22,854 bases of DNA from a virus (Duplodnaviria > Heunggongvirae > Uroviricota > Caudoviricetes). Location: IMG/VR virus record IMGVR_UViG_644736359_000002. One strand, written 5' to 3'. Positions 2,298-17,729 of the stretch are shown here, piece after piece. The notes beneath the pieces were generated by a model. It was not told the origin of the DNA, did not search any database, and was given only the letters and a program-made list of their open reading frames with translations. Each line of letters starts with the position of its first letter. The first letter of the stretch is position 1. The translations under genes and the position numbers were made by a program.

Positions 2298-2663
2298 TCA
2301 TGCAGCCTCCCGACGGGCAAGAATCCTTGAGCCGAACGCCATCAACTCTCCACGATCAACGGTCGTAAAGTGGCAGTGTGTACGGGGGTATGGGTGCCAG
2401 ATAATGAGCATCGAGCCTTTATTATTTCCACTGACGTGTTTCCCGGTGAGTGGGTTAATAAATGCCAGTCGTCCTGCCGTGATGAATCTGACCTCACTGG
2501 CGGTTTGTATCGCTTCATGAAACCATCCGACAGATGTGTCAGCAGGTAATAACATTACACATCCCACACTGCTGAATTTGTTTTCAGTGGCTGCCTTTTT
2601 CACAAAAGGGGAAATATTGCTGTATGGTGGATTCAACCAGACATAACCAGAGGCATATCCCAT
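2298..2663 (-). pseudogene. 5'-truncated phage N6-adenine DNA methyltransferase (Dam-like) fragment
   Basis: Translation starts MGYASGYVWLNPPYS: the NPPY catalytic motif sits 10 residues from the apparent start and the upstream AdoMet-binding region is absent; no RBS before the ATG at 2661-2663; abuts the P fragment on the opposite strand. Confidence 0.7.
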
Positions 2664-2667
2664 TGCT

Positions 2668-2910
2668 TACTGGTTGGTTACCAACTTGTACCAGAACATG
2701 CGGGCCAATGCGCTGACTGACGCGGAATTACGGCGCAAGGCTGCCGATGAACTGTCCTGTATGACCGCGCGAATTAACCGTGGTGAGGCGATACCTGAAC
2801 CAGTAAAACAACTTCCTGTCATGGGCGGTAGACCTCTAAATCGTGCACAGGCTCTGGCGAAGATCGCAGAAATCAAAGCTAAGTTCGGACTGAAAGGATC
2901 AAGTGTATGA
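2668..2910 (+). pseudogene. C-terminal fragment of lambda-type replication protein P (no native start)
   Basis: Frame reads YWLVTNLYQNMRANALTDAELRRKAADEL...KAKFGLKGSSV, recalled as the extreme C-terminus of lambda P; frame opens at 2668 directly at the junction with the methyltransferase fragment. Confidence 0.8.
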
Positions 2911-3209
2911 CGGGCAAAGAGGCAATTATTCATTACCTGGGGACGCATAAGAGCTTCTGTGCACAGGACGTTGCCGCGGTAACAGGTGCAACCGTAACCA
3001 GCATAAATCAGGCTGCGGCTAAAATGGCGCGGGCAGGAATCCTGGTCGTTGATGGTAAGGTCTGGCGAACGGTGTATTACCGGTTCGCTACCAGAGAAGA
3101 ACGGGAAGGAAAGGTGAGCACGAATCTGATTTTTAAGGAGTGTCGCCAGAGTGCCGCGATGAAACGGGTACTGAGGGTATATAAAAGAACATCAATGGGA
3201 ACACAATGA
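2907..3209 (+). CDS. renD: Ren-like protein (lambda Ren homologue), 100 aa
   Basis: MTGKEAIIHYLGTH...VTSINQAAAKMARAG...VYYRFATREEREGK recalled as lambda Ren; ATG overlaps the P-fragment stop in ATGA. Confidence 0.8.
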   Translation: MTGKEAIIHYLGTHKSFCAQDVAAVTGATVTSINQAAAKMARAGILVVDGKVWRTVYYRFATREEREGKVSTNLIFKECRQSAAMKRVLRVYKRTSMGTQ

Positions 3210-8695: not shown

Positions 8696-8832
8696 TGTTT
8701 GAGTTTTATATGGCAGAACTTCTTCGCCACCGCTGGATGCGCCTGCGCTTATATCGTTTCCCCGGTTCTGTTTTGACCGATTACCGAATACTGAAGAATT
8801 ACGCCAAAACACTGACAGGAGCAGGAGTATGA
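8692..8832 (+). CDS. ylcG: YlcG-like small protein (46 aa); below the ORF-track cutoff
   Basis: Hand translation [46 protein letters not shown]; ATG overlaps rusA stop (ATGA). Confidence 0.6.
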
Positions 8833-8917
8833 AGTCAGAGATAACAATCAACTAATACTGTTTTGTTGATTTTTGCTTGTAATTGGCGTTCTGGTCTGAG
8901 TTTTGTGGAGTAAGTTG

Positions 8918-9301
8918 ATGCGTGATATTCAGATGGTTCTTGAGCGTTGGGGAGCGTGGGCGGCTAATAATCATGAAGATGTGACCTGGTCGTCCATTGC
9001 CGCCGGTTTTAAGGGATTAATTCCTTCAAAAGTAAAATCTCGCCCACAATGTTGTGACGATGACGCGATGATCATTTGCGGGTGCATGGCCCGTCTGAAA
9101 AAGAACAACAGCGATTTGCATGATTTATTAGTAGATTATTATGTAGTCGGTATGACATTCATGTCACTGGCAGGTAAGCATTGCTGCTCTGATGGTTATA
9201 TCGGGAAAAGGTTACAGAAGGCTGAGGGCATAATTGAAGGGATGTTAATGGCATTAGATATCCGGTTAGAGATGGATATCGTTGTTAATAACTCTAATTA
9301 A
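8918..9301 (+). CDS. quuD: Late-gene antiterminator Q (phage 21/82-type), 127 aa
   Basis: [22 protein letters not shown]...[16 protein letters not shown] recalled as DLP12 QuuD; GGAG RBS before the ATG at 8918. Confidence 0.88.
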
Positions 9302-9316
9302 TATGCCAATTGTTTA

Positions 9317-9352
9317 CTAAAAATTATTAAAAATGGGGCGTTGAGACGCCCC
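9317..9352 (-). terminator. Candidate - strand terminator for the porin gene
   Basis: GC stem GGGGCGT/ACGCCCC (9335-9352) followed on the - strand by a U-rich tract (+ strand 9317-9334 is A-rich). Confidence 0.4.
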
Positions 9353-9440
9353 CAAAAATAAAGGGTAATATATAACAGAAGGTTTATATAGTTAGAAGCA
9401 AGGTTGTGCTTCTAAAGGAAGTGGCTTGAGGGAGCCACTT

Positions 9441-9481
9441 ATATGTTGGGGAGGCAAAGCCTCCCGCAACATATCTTTTTC
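9441..9481 (+). terminator. Strong intrinsic terminator in the Q-downstream leader (tR'-like)
   Basis: About 15-bp stem ATATGTTGGGGAGGC / GCCTCCCGCAACATAT with AAA loop, followed by CTTTTT. Confidence 0.65.
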
Positions 9482-9994
9482 GTAATCAGATTAGAACTGA
9501 TACACCAGACCTACAGCGACGATGTCGTCGGTATCAATACCAGCTGTTTTGGTAAACTTACTATCGTCAATTAAGTTGATTTTGTAATCAACAAAAGTGG
9601 ACATGTTTTTATTAAAGTAGTAAGTAGCACCGACATCGACATACTTGACTAAGTCTCGGTCACCATGAACACCAAGGTCTTTACCTTTTGACTGAAGGTA
9701 AGCAACAGATGGTCGCAGACCGAAGTCAAACTGATATTGTGCTACTGCTTCAAAGTTTTGTGCTTTGTTTGCAATATGGTTATTACCAAAAACGGTCATA
9801 TTCTGAGTTTCAGAATATGTGGTAGCCAGATAGATATTGTTCGCATCATATTTCAGGCCTGCAGCCCATACTTCCGCATTTTTGCCGGAGGCATTGAATT
9901 TGCTCTTACCATAGGCGACCTGACCGTCAGTGCGATCTGATTTAGCATAGGTTGCACCCACGCCGAATCCTTCATACTCATAAGTAGTGGAGAA

Positions 9995-10003
9995 ACCGAA
10001 ACC
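9995..10003. repeat. 9-bp target-site duplication ACCGAAACC (left copy)
   Basis: Identical 9-mer immediately flanks both IS1 ends. Confidence 0.9.
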
Positions 10004-10018
10004 GGTAATGACTCCAAC

Positions 10019-10522
10019 TTATTGATAGTGTTTTATGTTCAGATAATGCCCGATGACTTTGTCATGCAGCTCCACCGATTTTGAGAACGACAGCGACTTC
10101 CGTCCCAGCCGTGCCAGGTGCTGCCTCAGATTCAGGTTATGCCGCTCAATTCGCTGCGTATATCGCTTGCTGATTACGTGCAGCTTTCCCTTCAGGCGGG
10201 ATTCATACAGCGGCCAGCCATCCGTCATCCATATCACCACGTCAAAGGGTGACAGCAGGCTCATAAGACGCCCCAGCGTCGCCATAGTGCGTTCACCGAA
10301 TACGTGCGCAACAACCGTCTTCCGGAGCCTGTCATACGCGTAAAACAGCCAGCGCTGGCGCGATTTAGCCCCGACATAGCCCCACTGTTCGTCCATTTCC
10401 GCGCAGACGATGACGTCACTGCCCGGCTGTATGCGCGAGGTTACCGACTGCGGCCTGAGTTTTTTAAGTGACGTAAAATCGTGTTGAGGCCAACGCCCAT
10501 AATGCGGGCAGTTGCCCGGCAT
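10019..10522 (-). CDS. insB: IS1 InsB reading frame (transposase made as InsAB' by frameshifting)
   Basis: 167-aa ORF overlapping the insA 3' end, matching recalled IS1 InsB. Confidence 0.88.
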
Positions 10523-10716
10523 CCAACGCCATTCATGGCCATATCAATGATTTTCTGGTGCGTACCGGGTTGAGAAGCGGTGTAAGTGAACTGCAGTTGC
10601 CATGTTTTACGGCAGTGAGAGCAGAGATAGCGCTGATGTCCGGCGGTGCTTTTGCCGTTACGCACCACCCCGTCAGTAGCTGAACAGGAGGGACAGCTGA
10701 TAGAAACAGAAGCCAC
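10441..10716 (-). CDS. insA: IS1 InsA (91 aa)
   Basis: [43 protein letters not shown] recalled as IS1 InsA. Confidence 0.9.
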
Positions 10717-10771
10717 TGGAGCACCTCAAAAACACCATCATACACTAAATCAGTAAGTTGGCAGCATCACC

Positions 10772-10780
10772 ACCGAAACC
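10772..10780. repeat. 9-bp target-site duplication ACCGAAACC (right copy)
   Basis: Identical 9-mer immediately flanks both IS1 ends. Confidence 0.9.
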
Positions 10781-11938
10781 ATCACCATTGGCTTCAGTTA
10801 CGTCAGTGCGGTCATTTTTACCCTGATACTGAGCAGCAAAGTTCAGGCCATCGACCAGACCAAAGAAGTCGTTGTTACGATAGGTTGCAACACCAGTGGT
10901 GCGACCAGTCATGAACACATCTGTTTGGGTCCAGGTATCGCCACCGAATTCTGGCAGAACGTCAGTCCACGCACCGATGTCGTATGCTACACCGTAGTTA
11001 CGGCCGTAATCGATTGAGCCGTAGTCACCGAATTTCAGGCCTGCAAATGCAAGACGGGTTTTGTCTTTGGAGGAACCTTGAGATTCAGCGCGGTTGCCTT
11101 TGAATTCATATTCCCACTGACCGAAACCAGTCAGTTGATCGTTGATTTGGGTTTCACCTTTGAAGCCAAGACGGGCATAAGTAGTATCACCATCATCTGC
11201 ATCGTTAGAGGAAAAGTAGTGCTTGGCATTAACTTTCCCGTACAGATCCAGCTTGTTACTGTCTTTATTATAAATTTCAGCTGCCTGAGCAGACATCGCC
11301 ATCAGTACTGATGCAGCTACAGCAGAAATTGCCACTGTTAATTTTTTCATCGTGAGCCCTTTTTTTTGAACTATTATTAAAAAATGATGTCACTGCGCGA
11401 TAAATATTCATCTAATCAATGTGATTATTTCAAGATGTAAGTTTTAGTTTCTCATTTAATTTGTGAAGTAGATCTCTATTTTTATCTGAACTTTTTCTAT
11501 CGAAACCTATTTATGGCTCTTATTTGAACAAAAATAAACCTATTAGCTAATTTATATTAATGGCTGTTATTTATGGGGGTTCTATAATTCAGTGGTTTAA
11601 TTTAAATCAACTAAAAATAACGCCGGAAATTATTTATTGGTTATTTGTTGAGGTTTTCTTATATATTTGTGGTGGTGTTTTGAACACTCGGTAGCATTCT
11701 CATAAATATCATTCAGTGGTTTACGTACGTAAAAAATTGGTTATGCTGTTAAGAGTGGTTACTTCGTCACACAGCTTAAACCCGCCGTCGAGCTGGTTTT
11801 TCCATTTTTTGAGTCTCGATATTAGCTGATAACTCAATACCTGAGTTATTCACTGACTCCGAGTCTGTTACGTTTCTGCTTTTTTGCGATACGTTGTATT
11901 CCCTCAATTTACACCCGCTTTGTCTGCGAGGTGGGGTT

Positions 11939-12154
11939 ATGAAATCCATGGATAAGTTAACAACGGGTGTCGCCTATGGCACCTCAGCAGGTAGTGCCGG
12001 TTACTGGTTTTTACAGCTGCTCGATAAAGTCACGCCCTCACAGTGGGCAGCAATAGGTGTGCTGGGTAGCCTGGTATTTGGCCTGCTGACGTACCTGACA
12101 AACCTTTATTTCAAGATTAAAGAAGATAAGCGCAAGGCTGCGAGAGGTGAATAA
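11939..12154 (+). CDS. essD: Class II holin (phage 21 S-type pinholin) with dual-start motif, 71 aa
   Basis: [26 protein letters not shown]... with Met1/Met4 dual start; GAGGTGG RBS; recalled as EssD/S21. Confidence 0.88.
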
Positions 12155-12651
12155 TGCCTCCATCATTACGAAAAGCCGTTGCTGCTGCTATTGGTGGCGG
12201 AGCAATTGCTATAGCATCAGTGTTAATCACTGGCCCAAGTGGTAACGATGGTCTGGAAGGTGTCAGCTACATACCATACAAAGATATTGTTGGTGTATGG
12301 ACTGTATGTCACGGGCATACAGGAAAAGACATCATGCTCGGTAAAACGTATACCAAAGCAGAATGCAAAGCCCTCCTGAATAAAGACCTTGCCACGGTCG
12401 CCAGACAAATTAACCCGTACATAAAAGTTGATATACCGGAAACAACGCGCGGCGCTCTTTACTCGTTCGTTTACAACGTGGGCGCTGGCAATTTCAGAAC
12501 ATCGACGCTTCTTCGCAAAATAAACCAGGGCGATATCAAAGGCGCATGTGATCAGCTACGTCGCTGGACATATGCTGGCGGTAAGCAATGGAAAGGTCTC
12601 ATGACTCGTCGTGAGATTGAGCGTGAAATCTGTTTGTGGGGTCAGCAATGA
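12154..12651 (+). CDS. rrrD: SAR (signal-arrest-release) endolysin, phage 21 R-type lysozyme, 165 aa
   Basis: Gly/Ala-rich N-terminal SAR segment [20 protein letters not shown] followed by a lysozyme domain; start overlaps essD stop (TAATG). Confidence 0.88.
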
Positions 12652-13109
12652 ACAGAGTAACCGCGATTATCTCCGCTCTGGTTATCTGCATCATCGTCTG
12701 CCTGTCATGGGCTGTTAATCATTACCGTGATAACGCCATTACCTACAAAGCCCAGCGCGACAAAAATGCCAGAGAACTGAAGCTGGCGAACGCGGCAATT
12801 ACTGACATGCAGATGCGCCAGCGTGATGTTGCTGCACTGGATGAAAAATACACGAAGGAGTTAGCTAATGCGAAAGCTGAAAATGATGCTCTGCGTGATG
12901 ATGTTGCCGCTGGTCGTCGTCGGTTGCACATCAAAGCAGTCTGTCAGTCAGTGCGTGAAGCCACCACCGCCTCCGGCGTGGATAATGCAGCCTCCCCCCG
13001 ACTGGCAGACACCGCTGAACGGGATTATTTCACCCTCAGAGAGAGGCTGATCACTATGCAAAAACAACTGGAAGGAACCCAGAAGTATATTAATGAGCAG
13101 TGCAGATAG
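12648..13109 (+). CDS. rzpD: Rz-like i-spanin (153 aa)
   Basis: N-terminal TM segment then coiled-coil-like region; ATG overlaps rrrD stop (ATGA). Confidence 0.82.
12868..13050 (+). CDS. rzoD: Rz1-like o-spanin lipoprotein embedded in the +1 frame of rzpD (60 aa)
   Basis: Lipobox LVVVGC and proline-rich mature region [15 protein letters not shown]; entirely within rzpD. Confidence 0.78.
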
Positions 13110-14953: not shown

Positions 14954-17729
14954 TTATCATCTTCGCGGGCGCATTCTGCAGGTGCCGTCGAACTATAACC
15001 CGCAGACGCGGCAATACAGCGGTATCTGGGACGGAACGTTTAAGCCGGCATACAGCAACAACCCGGCCTGGTGTCTGTGGGATATGCTGACCCACCCGCG
15101 CTACGGCATGGGGAAACGTCTTGGTGCGGCGGATGTGGATAAATGGGCGCTGTATGTCATCGGCCAGTACTGCGACCAGTCAGTGCCGGACGGTTTTGGC
15201 GGCACGGAGCCGCGCATCACCTGTAATGCCTACCTGACCACGCAGCGTAAGGCGTGGGATGTGCTCAGTGATTTCTGCTCGGCGATGCGCTGTATGCCGG
15301 TATGGAACGGGCAGACGCTGACGTTCGTGCAGGACCGACCATCAGATAAGGTGTGGACCTATAACCGCAGTAATGTGGTGATGCCGGATGATGGCGCGCC
15401 GTTCCGCTACAGCTTCAGCGCCCTGAAGGACCGCCATAATGCCGTTGAGGTGAACTGGATTGACCCGAATAACGGCTGGGAGACGGCGACAGAGCTTGTT
15501 GAAGATACGCAGGCCATTCTCCGTTACGGTCGTAACGTCACGAAGATGGATGCCTTTGGCTGTACCAGCCGGGGGCAGGCACACCGCGCCGGGCTGTGGC
15601 TGATTAAAACGGAGCTGCTGGAAACGCAGACCGTGGACTTCAGCGTGGGTGCCGAAGGGCTTCGCCATGTACCGGGCGATGTCATTGAAATCTGCGATGA
15701 TGACTATGCCGGTATCCGCACCGGCGGGCGCGTGCTGGCGGTAAACAGCCAGACCCGGACGCTGACGCTCGACCGTGAAATCACGCTGCCATCTTCCGGC
15801 ACCACGCTGATAAGCCTGGTTGACGGGCAGGGGAGTCCGGTCAGCGTGGAGGTTCAGTCCGTCACCGACGGCGTGAAGGTGAAAGTGAGCCGTGTTCCTG
15901 ACGGCGTTGCTGAATACAGCGTATGGGGGCTGAAGCTGCCGACGTTGCGCCAGCGCCTGTTCCGCTGCGTGAGTATCCGTGAGAACGACGACGGCACGTA
16001 TGCCATCACCGCCGTGCAGCATGTACCGGAAAAAGAGGCCATCGTGGATAACGGGGCGCACTTTGACGGCGACCAGAGCGGCACGGTAAATGGTGTCACG
16101 CCGCCAGCGGTGCAGCACCTGACCGCAGAAGTCACCGCAGACAGCGGGGAATACCAGGTGCTGGCCCGCTGGGATACGCCGAAGGTGGTGAAGGGCGTGA
16201 GCTTCCTGCTTCGCCTGACCGTGGCAGCGGATGACGGCCGTGAGCGACTGGTCAGCACGGCCCGGACGACGGAAACCACTTACCGCTTCACACAACTGGC
16301 TCTGGGGAACTACAGGCTGACAGTCCGGGCAGTAAATGCGTGGGGGCAGCAGGGCGAGCCGGCGTCGGTATCGTTCCGGATTGCCGCACCGGCAGCGCCG
16401 TCGCAGATTGAGCTGACACCGGGGTATTTTCAGATAACCGCCACGCCGCATCTTGCGGTTTATGATCCGACGGTACAGTTTGAGTTCTGGTTCTCGGAAA
16501 AGCGGATTGCGGATATCAGGCAGGTTGAAACCACAGCACGCTATCTTGGCACGGCGCTGTACTGGATAGCCGCCAGTATCAATATCAAACCGGGCCATGA
16601 TTATTATTTTTACATCCGCAGTGTGAACACCGTTGGCAAATCGGCATTCGTGGAGGCTGTTGGCCAGCCGAGTGATGATGCATCCGGCTATCTGAATTTT
16701 TTCAAAGGAGAGATAGGGAAAACCCATCTGGCTCAGGAGTTGTGGACGCAGATTGATAACGGTCAGCTTGCGCCTGACCTGGCGGAAATCAGAACGTCCA
16801 TCACGGATGTCAGTAATGAAATCACGCAGACCGTCAATAAGAAACTGGAAGACCAGAGTGCGGCAATCCAGCAGATACAGAAGGTTCAGGTTGATACAAA
16901 TAATAACCTGAACAGCATGTGGGCTGTGAAGCTGCAGCAGATGCAGGACGGACGCCTTTATATCGCGGGTATTGGTGCCGGTATTGAGAATACCCCTGAC
17001 GGTATGCAGAGTCAGGTGCTGCTGGCGGCGGACAGGATTGCGATGATTAATCCTGCGAATGGCAACACAAAGCCGATGTTTGTTGGTCAGGGCGATCAGA
17101 TATTCATGAACGAAGTGTTCCTGAAATATCTGACGGCTCCCACCATTACCAGCGGCGGTAATCCTCCGGCATTTTCCCTGACACCGGACGGGCGGCTGAC
17201 GGCGAAAAATGCCGATATTAGCGGTAACGTGAATGCGAACTCCGGGACGCTCAACAACGTCACGATTAACGAGAACTGCCGGGTTCTGGGAAAACTGTCC
17301 GCGAACCAGATTGAAGGCGATCTCGTTAAAACAGTGGGCAAAGCTTTCCCCCGGGACTCCCGTGCACCGGAGCGGTGGCCATCAGGGACCATTACCGTCA
17401 GGGTTTATGACGATCAGCCGTTTGACCGGCAAATTGTTATTCCGGCGGTGGCATTCAGTGGCGCTAAACATGAGCAAGATCATACTGATATCTACTCCTC
17501 ATGCCGTCTGATAGTACGAAAAAACGGTGCTGAAATTTATAACCGAACGGCTCTGGATAATACGCTGATATATACGGGTGTTATTGATATGCCTGCAGGC
17601 AGTGGTGTAATGACACTGGAATTTTCTGTATCGGCATGGCTGGTAAATGGCTGGTATCCCACAGCAAGTATCAGCGATTTGCTGGTTGTGGTGATGAAGA
17701 AAGCCACTGCAGGCATCATGATTAGCTGA
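14883..17729 (+). pseudogene. N-terminally truncated tail tip/host-specificity protein J (lambda J from about residue 190 to the C-terminus), no native start or RBS
   Basis: Frame opens right after a stop at 14880-14882 and reads [41 protein letters not shown]..., recalled as internal lambda J sequence; the last ~150 residues differ from lambda J. Confidence 0.85.

Follow-up and report, generated by a model that had tools for sequence, protein, structure and literature searches.

A porin gene silenced by an excisable IS1 upstream of the putative late promoter in the DLP12 prophage of Escherichia coli B

The porin gene of the DLP12 prophage in E. coli B is very probably a piece of cargo that lies upstream of the late promoter, has been silenced by IS1 and can be recovered by excision of the element, and its silencing is independent of the IS5 insertion in the K-12 copy. 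In the scheme proposed here, the nmpC/lc-type porin would constitute a self-contained unit read leftward, with a CRP-type promoter region, a structured 3′ UTR and a terminator, located after the Q gene and ahead of the late promoter. Transposition of an IS1A copy into codons 191-193, in the B lineage, duplicated a 9-bp target, cut the porin to a fragment of 201 aa and silenced a gene that is otherwise undamaged. The two 9-bp repeats can recombine, dropping 777 bp and restoring a working porin, an event that has been selected in the laboratory. The promoter and the Q-loading region are assigned to positions 11720-11805, so that late transcripts would start beyond the porin and its IS1, and the insertion should have no effect on the Q-dependent expression of the lysis genes. 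That nmpC of E. coli B is split by IS1 is already known; RefSeq already annotates the split porin and the IS1, and the title of a 1998 paper and a statement in PMC3333887 describe nmpC as a porin gene that is quiescent in E. coli B.

The window, i.e. the whole stretch of 22,854 nucleotides that was analysed, is matched at 100% over all of its bases by the E. coli B strains ATCC 11303, NCTC10537 and B. Judged by these matches and by its gene order, it is the cryptic lambdoid prophage DLP12 of E. coli B, which is defective. It is adjacent to argU and its genes follow the order intD ... emrE ybcK ... rusA quuD nmpC essD rrrD rzpD bor, as read from the RefSeq annotation of BL21(DE3), MIN14 and K-12 over the matching stretch. 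On comparison with K-12, six shared blocks with 93.8-99.8% identity were found. The exact 140-bp IS1 junction was matched at 100% by 38 independent assemblies and in part by 4 more, which are BL21-derived; the junction between IS1 and the porin is confined to B, BL21, C41/C43, NEB Express and similar strains (38 to 42 of 5,426 genomes). Two matches in wild strains that resembled the same insertion were rejected as different IS1 insertions, located outside the porin. Two two-piece matches, in which about 660 bases are spanned and an intact porin is annotated, do not look like the same junction.

The porin gene (nmpC), of the OmpC family, occupies positions 9491-11350 on the minus strand, between quuD and the lysis genes, just as the initial annotation had placed it. 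It is present in two pieces: a 3′ fragment (9491-9994, minus strand) with codons 194-360 and the stop codon, which is labelled 'porin, incomplete, missing N-terminus' in RefSeq, and a 5′ fragment (10772-11350, minus strand) with the signal peptide and codons 1-193. The 5′ ORF (10745-11350) runs into IS1, and a truncated product of 201 aa is predicted. When IS1 and one repeat were deleted in silico, an ORF of 1083 nt was obtained, encoding 360 aa, of which residues 29-360 align with positions 1-337 of the 337 positions of Porin_1, the Pfam profile of 16-strand porins (E=1.9e-151), i.e. from end to end. The rebuilt protein has both the signal peptide and the C-terminal Phe (...VYQF) that are characteristic of Porin_1 members, and the gene in its interrupted form does not encode such a protein. 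It had been suggested that precise loss of IS1 might return an intact porin ORF unless the frame was also broken elsewhere. The deletion in silico bears this out, and no other disruption was found, the rebuilt gene being base-for-base identical to the intact genes of MIN14 and E100341.

The interrupting element is an intact IS1A of 768 bp (10004-10771, minus strand), as identified from its ends, Pfam and RefSeq; it has the same orientation as the porin, and its IRL side points to the porin 5′ fragment. The terminal inverted repeats are imperfect, GGTAATGACTCCAACTTATTGAT and GGTGATGCTGCCAACTTACTGAT matching at 17 of 23 positions. The Pfam domains Zn_ribbon_InsA and HTH_Tnp_IS1 are encoded by insA (10441-10716, minus strand), and DDE_Tnp_IS1 (E=2.3e-78) by the insB frame (10019-10522, minus strand). 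The A6C motif TTAAAAAAC, at which a −1 frameshift joins insA and insB′ in the IS1 family, is present (10459-10467; IS1 position 305), and a programmed frameshift is annotated in RefSeq. In its length, terminal repeats, frameshift arrangement, DDE domain and 9-bp duplication, the element agrees with the IS1 family, and it matches the IS1 of E100341, which carries a near-identical prophage, without a single mismatch.

Target duplications of IS1 are 9 bp and sometimes 8 bp in length. Two copies of ACCGAAACC abut the element exactly, at 9995-10003 on the IRR side and at 10772-10780 on the IRL side, the latter forming porin codons 191-193 (Gly-Phe-Gly). A third ACCGAAACC occurs in the window at 11120, where it provides the second Gly-Phe-Gly codons of the same porin gene. 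MIN14 and E100341 have this prophage too, in both cases with an uninterrupted porin and a single ACCGAAACC at the empty site. The simple transposition with a 9-bp target duplication that the initial annotation had put forward is upheld by the repeats at both ends and the one copy in the empty site; the flanking 9-mers go back to a single original copy, and the flanks are contiguous in the relatives.

Downstream of the porin, a 3′ UTR on the minus strand (9326-9490) contains three strong hairpins, followed by an intrinsic terminator (minus strand; stem at 9335-9352 and then a U-run) with a hairpin of −13.9 kcal/mol. The stretch 9326-9490 is presumably the ipeX region (Castillo-Keller et al. 2006). 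Fold z-scores for positions 9390-9490 are −6.2 on the plus strand and −8.3 on the minus strand, and the spacer between Q and the porin differs by one base from K-12 and PA-2. Transcripts from PnmpC most likely stop inside IS1, in which case this 3′ UTR would no longer be made from PnmpC. Upstream of the porin lies its AT-rich regulatory region with PnmpC, reading leftward (11351-11719, minus strand); the whole spacer between porin and holin has 33% G+C. The approximately 115 nt upstream of the porin ATG are the same as in K-12, save one T in a T-run, and in K-12 the start site of PnmpC has been mapped and the promoter drives an nmpC-IS5 fusion RNA (PMC11677980). A putative CRP-type site at ~11460-11480 was transferred from the annotation of phage PA-2, its offset being approximate. 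A search of positions 8800-12300 against Rfam at permissive thresholds gave zero matches, so the structured 3′ UTR and the leader of the late promoter belong to no curated RNA family.

The arrangement is that of a moron. The porin unit sits between elements that are adjacent in related phages: the distance from the Q stop codon to the late-promoter box is 18 nt in Ss-VASD and Sakai Sp5 and 41 nt in PhiR49_2, compared with 2,449 nt in the window (1,672 nt without IS1 and one repeat). The unit is also accepted as having a promoter and a terminator of its own, the promoter being assigned through near-identity to PnmpC of K-12.

The Q-type late antiterminator is encoded by quuD (8918-9301, plus strand; Pfam Phage_antitermQ, E=9.7e-54; RefSeq quuD). 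QuuD shows 80% identity to Q of the Stx phage Ss-VASD and is distantly related to the phage 21 Q structures 6jnx/6p18. The lysis genes, assigned by Pfam and RefSeq and all on the plus strand, are those for the holin (essD, 11939-12154; Phage_holin_2_1), the endolysin (rrrD, 12154-12651; Phage_lysozyme) and the spanin (rzpD, ending at 13109; Phage_lysis). In the interval between porin and holin, a late-promoter (pR′) homologue was recognized at 11720-11805 on the plus strand through homology to the module of Stx phages. It comprises TTTACG (11720-11725), a 16-nt spacer and TATGCT (11742-11747), with an inferred start near 11754, the conserved box TAAGAGTGGTTAC (11750-11762) and a hairpin with a U-run at ~11780-11805. 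The module follows the porin and precedes the holin ATG by about 185 nt, and its box is the sole exact copy of TAAGAGTGGTTAC in the window. Its homologue in Ss-VASD, where Q ends, is annotated as 'putative late promoter PR′', and Sakai Sp5 and PhiR49_2 have a homologous stretch in the same position. The start inferred for Sp5, read by eye, is ~257-258 nt from a strong terminator, in agreement with the mapped PR′-tR′ distance of 258 nt (PMC7547250); the Sp5 match rests on this spacing, the Sakai coordinates of the paper differing from the RefSeq version by 142 nt. No copy of the module was found adjoining Q in the window, and a consensus promoter scan of the plus strand between Q and the porin returned no promoter-like site. 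The scan missed the pR′ homologue (8 of 12 matches) but called its Sakai counterpart; the TATGCT −10 hexamer is weaker than those of the Stx phages.

Since the only pR′ module lies between porin and holin, Q-dependent transcripts most likely begin beyond the porin and IS1 and cross neither. In this respect we depart from the initial annotation, which had included the porin in the late operon and had Q-dependent transcripts crossing it and IS1 in antisense on their way to the holin; the whole of 9491-11350 lies upstream of that module. The published reporter for the DLP12 essD promoter begins at window position 11278, inside the porin 5′ end, and thus excludes the spacer between Q and the porin; its reverse primer matches inexactly and was placed by eye in essD, and its '+650' end is approximate. 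In the DLP12 literature, the +1 of essDp is placed some 355 nt to the left of the start inferred here, i.e. close to window position 11399 as derived from primer positions. Hence, there are two candidate start sites for essD, ~11754 and ~11399, both of which are downstream of the porin. It is very unlikely that Q-modified RNA polymerase coming from just after Q reads ~2.4 kb antisense to the porin and IS1, an arrangement in which IS1 could affect lysis-gene expression, even though the gene order (Q, opposite-strand porin, holin) suggests it and the late promoter does follow directly after Q in phage lambda and Stx phages. A −35-like remnant (GTTTAC...AAAAATT) is also present just after the Q stop, at ~9313-9326; however, it has no −10, conserved box or downstream hairpin and runs straight into the porin terminator, whereas the complete module is found at 11720-11805. 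Moreover, a plus-strand hairpin at ~9443-9482 (9443-9476, then CTTTTT) is terminator-like for transcripts leaving Q, and the published Q-responsive DLP12 constructs do without the spacer. A start downstream of the porin concerns the Q-dependent transcripts; N-modified early transcripts of a complete phage of the DLP12 type could cross the porin in antisense.

Reversion of the interrupted gene was described in a 2026 preprint, in which a 777-bp excision of IS1A from nmpC reactivated NmpC in an ompF deletion strain derived from REL606. The excision was fixed within 7 transfers, nmpC RNA was detected solely after it had taken place, and RT-PCR across the 1.86-kb interrupted nmpC failed, which may lend slight support to a stop of porin transcripts in IS1; the nmpC primers of the preprint are exact matches to window positions 9491-9512 and 11330-11350. 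Reactivation was linked to higher permeability to cefotaxime and altered beta-lactam susceptibility, and the growth rate without drug was no different. That this excision brings expression back also argues against an IS1-mediated rearrangement having left the interruption behind, whether by recombination of two IS1 copies, by adjacent deletion or by inversion. E. coli B does hold some 27-30 IS1 copies, and several IS1-mediated deletions are known in it, but the 9-bp duplication is perfect, and in the relatives the two flanks join without a gap in an uninterrupted gene of identical sequence. An assembly artefact is contradicted by the occurrence of the same junction in at least 38 independent assemblies. 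The probability of either is negligible, and both were rejected on the evidence of the empty site and the multiple assemblies. A different question is whether this simple transposition was positively selected, loss of the porin having, for instance, removed a phage receptor or lowered permeability, in parallel to the separate loss of OmpC in B. The B and K-12 lineages each silenced nmpC with a different IS, the closest wild relatives have an intact copy and reactivation of the gene alters beta-lactam susceptibility, all of which would agree with selection. On the other hand, IS1 is very active in B, and its insertion into a prophage gene that can be dispensed with may have been neutral; the AT-rich region also gathers IS1 hits outside the porin coding sequence, and the preprint saw no difference in growth rate in drug-free conditions. 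Selection for the insertion is considered unlikely.

In K-12, the IS5 copy in nmpC is co-oriented with the gene and is the only one with efficient production of transposase RNA, via PnmpC; it dominates genome-wide IS5 transposition (PMC11677980). By analogy, the porin promoter might serve as a launch pad for insertion sequences and the IS1 copy in B might be a CRP-controlled, disproportionately active donor, which we regard as a doubtful proposition; the truncated porin ORF ends 28 nt before the insA start codon. If it were true, the IS1 in nmpC would feed the transpositions that shape evolution in the B lineage (BL21, REL606 and the long-term evolution experiment).

OmpF is the main general porin in E. 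coli B/BL21, which keep a silent, otherwise undamaged nmpC that can be switched on by the 777-bp excision. The switch alters antibiotic permeability and bears on experimental evolution and protein-production strains, though it is already published and its consequences are modest. The small new point is that, in these lambdoid phages, porin cargo appears to lie between Q and the late promoter, unlike stx, which lies downstream. Porin cargo would accordingly be insulated from late transcription, correcting a common assumption, and an IS inside it should therefore not affect the control of the lysis genes.

Compared with canonical IS1 (IS1A), the copy in the window shows nothing unusual, its length, repeats, insA/insB′ and 9-bp duplication all being alike. 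The interrupted gene of K-12 (nmpC::IS5, DLP12/qsr′) belongs to the same prophage, with the same argU attachment and the same order of quuD, opposite-strand porin and essD-rrrD-rzpD; there, the IS is likewise co-oriented with the porin, and hardly any differences are seen in the 3′ UTR and the proximal promoter region. The insertions differ in that K-12 has IS5B (1195 bp) after codon 346 of a 365-aa porin, 58 nt from the stop, with the 4-bp duplication TTAG, whereas B has IS1 (768 bp) after codon 193 of a 360-aa porin, with a 9-bp duplication. The K-12 porin and the rebuilt B porin are identical at 331 of 365 aligned positions, and every difference falls after residue 147. The independent inactivation that the initial annotation had proposed for K-12 was confirmed in this way, with another element at another site in another allele.

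Over 2.5 kb, the block made up of Q, the porin in reverse orientation and the holin shows 90-97% identity to that of PA-2, with its porin gene lc, and of ~36 sequenced temperate coliphages with porins (ev207, 2G7b, PhiR11_1, mEp332 and others). These phages have the same 3′ UTR, CRP-type upstream region and holin-adjacent late-promoter module, but they are plaque-forming and their porin is intact, whereas in the window the porin is interrupted and the prophage defective. The Stx phages (Sakai Sp5/Sp15, Ss-VASD; PR′/StxS) have a homologous Q, TTTACG-16-TATxxT, the TAAGAGTGGTTAC box and the first hairpin. There, the 3′ end of Q and the module overlap, and the cargo (tRNAs, stx) is downstream of the module, whereas in the window Q and the module are set apart by a cargo of 1.7 kb (2.4 kb with IS1), which is thus upstream of the module.

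The nmpC-type porin gene occupies positions 9491-11350 on the minus strand and is split by a 768-bp IS1 at 10004-10771. The element has terminal inverted repeats, insA and insB frames and the frameshift motif TTAAAAAAC; the insA frame encodes the InsA zinc-ribbon and HTH domains, and the insB frame the IS1 DDE domain (Pfam, E=2.3e-78). Copies of the target-site repeat ACCGAAACC directly adjoin the two ends of the element, at 9995-10003 and 10772-10780. When IS1 and one repeat were removed in silico, a 1083-nt ORF of 360 aa was obtained, which is matched over its full length by Porin_1 (Pfam, E=1.9e-151) and has a signal peptide and a C-terminal Phe. The duplicated 9-mer represents porin codons 191-193 (Gly-Phe-Gly). 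A third copy in the window, at 11120 (gene positions 223-231), is not mysterious, since it encodes the second Gly-Phe-Gly of the porin. As interrupted, the reading frame of the 5' fragment extends 27 nt into IS1, with a predicted truncated product of 201 aa.

The interrupted nmpC of E. coli B is already known: a 1998 paper reportedly described nmpC as a quiescent porin gene of this strain, and both porin fragments and the intervening IS1A are annotated in RefSeq. There, the region is the DLP12 prophage adjoining the argU tRNA gene; the gene order runs intD ... emrE, ybcK, ybcL, ybcM, ybcN, ninE, ybcO, rusA, ylcG and quuD, followed by porin fragment, IS1A transposase, porin fragment, essD, rrrD, rzpD and bor/iss. 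The entire window (22,854 bases) matches E. coli B at 100% identity (ATCC 11303, NCTC10537, 'B' and drug-selected derivatives). In BL21-type strains, lineage-specific deletions reduce the match to 75% of the window. BL21(DE3) lacks 2709-2980 (272 bp in the replication P/ren remnant), 15053-15918 (866 bp within the tail-tip gene) and all sequence rightward of 18240; with these three stretches missing there, the window represents the ancestral-type B form rather than BL21.

The initial annotation read the insertion as a simple transposition with a clean 9-bp duplication, and the empty site bears this out. The prophage is found at ~100% identity, minus the 777 bp, in several wild or non-B strains, among them MIN14 O7:H4, AST19, EC0026B, ATCC 8739 and B771. 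The MIN14 site (...GGAGAAACCGAAACCATCACC...) holds a single ACCGAAACC, and the porin annotated as intact in that strain is identical at every base to the rebuilt B gene, as is the intact porin of E100341, a Gambian stool isolate. The single 9-mer and the identical intact genes establish the repeat as a genuine duplication from one transposition; the identity to intact relatives likewise means that the flanks are contiguous and that the frame carries no other lesion. On searching 5,426 complete E. coli genomes with a 140-bp left-junction probe, a 100% match was obtained in 38 genomes and a partial one in 4 more BL21-derived assemblies, all 42 being, by name, laboratory strains of the B or BL21 lineage. 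Given this confinement, the insertion dates to the B lineage, after its split from the closest sequenced wild relatives.

The insertion abolishes the porin. In a 2026 preprint, a REL606-derived ompF deletion strain carrying a high-activity beta-lactamase was propagated under cefotaxime; each of its six lines had fixed a 777-bp deletion (768 + 9) by the seventh transfer, and nmpC expression was restored, nmpC RNA being detected by RT-PCR only after excision. The primers used are exact matches to both ends of the window porin gene. This is the excision experiment that the initial annotation had asked for and, with the rebuilt 360-aa frame, it answers affirmatively whether precise IS1 loss restores the porin ORF. 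We infer that the insertion also uncouples the porin 3' UTR (165 nt, with one loop base different from K-12 and PA-2) from PnmpC, the leftward porin promoter. This UTR is presumably the ipeX RNA region; ipeX RNA reportedly lowers OmpC and OmpF, a finding of Castillo-Keller et al. from 2006. The proximal region upstream of the porin is that of K-12 except for one T in a T-run, and PnmpC transcription would enter IS1 in the sense direction. In K-12, PnmpC makes an nmpC-IS5 fusion RNA, and that IS5 copy is the dominant transposition donor (PMC11677980); by analogy, the IS1 in the B porin could possibly be a PnmpC-driven dominant donor.

In MG1655, nmpC (b0553) is cut by IS5B after codon 346 with a 4-bp duplication, TTAG, which leaves just 58 nt of the gene past the insertion. 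The rebuilt K-12 protein (365 aa) and the B protein agree at 331 of 365 aligned positions; residues 1-147 are identical, and all 34 differing columns, including two indels, lie beyond 147. This pattern looks like a recombination mosaic, or else diversification of particular segments. The different element, site and allele mean that the copies in B and K-12 were inactivated independently, as the initial annotation had proposed. Porin genes covering at least 80% of the B gene are present in 2,502 of the 5,426 complete E. coli genomes, with a best match of at least 99% identity in 616 records. The whole Q-porin-holin block was found at 90-97% identity in 36 phage-collection records. Many temperate phages that form plaques are among them, as is the classical lc locus of PA-2, so that this gene order is normal and functional in phages.

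The porin had also been placed inside the late operon, so that Q-dependent transcripts would have to cross the porin and IS1; here the evidence points the other way. When the porin-holin spacer was searched against phages, 11719-11801 matched several hundred records at 76-94% identity, mostly Stx phages, in which the matched DNA lies at or just past the 3' end of Q, and its counterpart in Ss-VASD is annotated as 'putative late promoter PR''. The alignment revealed a common promoter, TTTACG-16 nt-TATCAT in Stx phages versus TATGCT in the window, with the invariant box TAAGAGTGGTTAC after the -10 and then a GC-rich hairpin with a T-run. QuuD, the product of the Q gene quuD, shares 80% identity with the Q protein of Ss-VASD, from which a related Q-loading site would be expected. 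The same promoter occurs in Sakai prophage Sp5 (L013:912-939). Counted on the sequence, ~257-258 nt separate a start 7 nt past its -10 from the T-run of the next strong terminator; the PR'-to-tR' distance obtained by dRNA-seq and Term-seq is 258 nt (PMC7547250), an agreement in spacing only, since the paper and the RefSeq version differ by 142 nt in absolute coordinates.

The window holds a single exact copy of the box, at 11750-11762, and two other matches, with 3 mismatches, are at chance level. The Q stop and the box are separated by 18 nt in both Ss-VASD and Sp5, by 41 nt in PhiR49_2 and by 2,449 nt in the window. The promoter-box-hairpin module was not found in the 189-bp Q-porin spacer, in which only a short -35 resemblance, with no -10 element, precedes the terminator of the porin itself. 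On the plus strand, a strong hairpin and then CTTTTT close the spacer and would halt unmodified transcripts from Q. Just 3' of the Q stop, GTTTAC-T-AAAAATT (9313-9326) resembles the late-promoter -35 region GTTTAC-GTACGT-AAAAAATT (11719-11738), and may be a remnant of the ancestral Q-promoter junction at the left edge of the porin insertion, or chance.

On the plus strand at 11368-11394, 18-44 nt from the porin start codon, lies GAACTA-16-TCACT, a sigma-E-like sequence. A reporter for the DLP12 promoter of SRRz, the essD-rrrD-rzpD lysis cassette, has been described as -121 to +650 (PMC7918800); its forward primer corresponds to 11278-11297, inside the nmpC 5' end, which puts the published +1 near 11399. 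The sigma-E-like element fits the +1 implied by this construct. Both candidate lysis-gene starts, ~11399 (published) and ~11754 (PR' homology), lie downstream of the porin and IS1, and Q-modified polymerase would not need to cross them. The lysis genes would be served by two promoters, the one at ~11399 and, 355 nt beyond that +1, the PR' homologue. From homology and the published constructs, we infer that the porin is cargo inserted between Q and the late promoter and oriented away from the latter, not a member of the late operon.

Within the hairpin at ~11780-11805, the first after the late-promoter homologue, E. coli B and phage PA-2 have GCTGG at 11794, and K-12, SfII, PhiR49_2 and Stx phages have GCGGG. 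The change breaks the CCCGC/GCGGG stem, and the 61-nt leader is predicted to form a different, weaker hairpin (-9.5 versus -15.1 kcal/mol), which could raise basal read-through into the lysis genes. B and PA-2 also share 16 bp, CTGCTTTTTTGCGATA, that are missing from K-12; they lie at 11877-11892, ~50 nt before the holin start.

Other insertions and cargo were observed nearby. E100341 carries an IS1 identical to that of the window, in the same orientation, at the quuD stop codon (equivalent to window 9299-9307, duplication TAATATGCC), its porin being intact; the quuD gene of S1-KEN-05-A is split by a divergent IS1, with 27 mismatches and the duplication TGAATGTCA. These are two further independent IS1 events in a small region, and the AT-rich Q-porin neighbourhood seems to collect them. 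A viable laboratory variant of phage 434, isolate 434B (OL657227.1), contains a stretch of K-12 DLP12 that begins at ylcG and ends shortly before the holin. It includes nmpC with IS5 after codon 346 and was evidently acquired by recombination with the host cryptic prophage; phage growth therefore tolerates a 1.2-kb IS between Q and the late promoter. In SfII (421-1443) and mEp460_4F5 (510-1436), the gene immediately before the late-promoter box reads leftward and has no match in Pfam. Lambda_ev087 has a leftward Blc-type lipocalin gene (2550-3074) just downstream of its quuD-like Q gene, and no copy of the box was found in the 4.4 kb examined. Judging from these arrangements, reverse-oriented cargo may repeatedly have been accommodated between Q and the late promoter.

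The initial observation is confirmed, its reading being right on the insertion and on K-12 and wrong on late transcription. The present analysis contributes the empty-site proof, the restriction to one lineage, the K-12 allele comparison and the late-promoter correction. In K-12, nmpC is interrupted by IS5B at TTAG after codon 346, whereas in B it is interrupted by IS1 at the 9-bp ACCGAAACC in codons 191-193. In Stx phages the late promoter adjoins Q, whereas here the 2,449 nt from the Q stop to the box hold the porin and its IS1.
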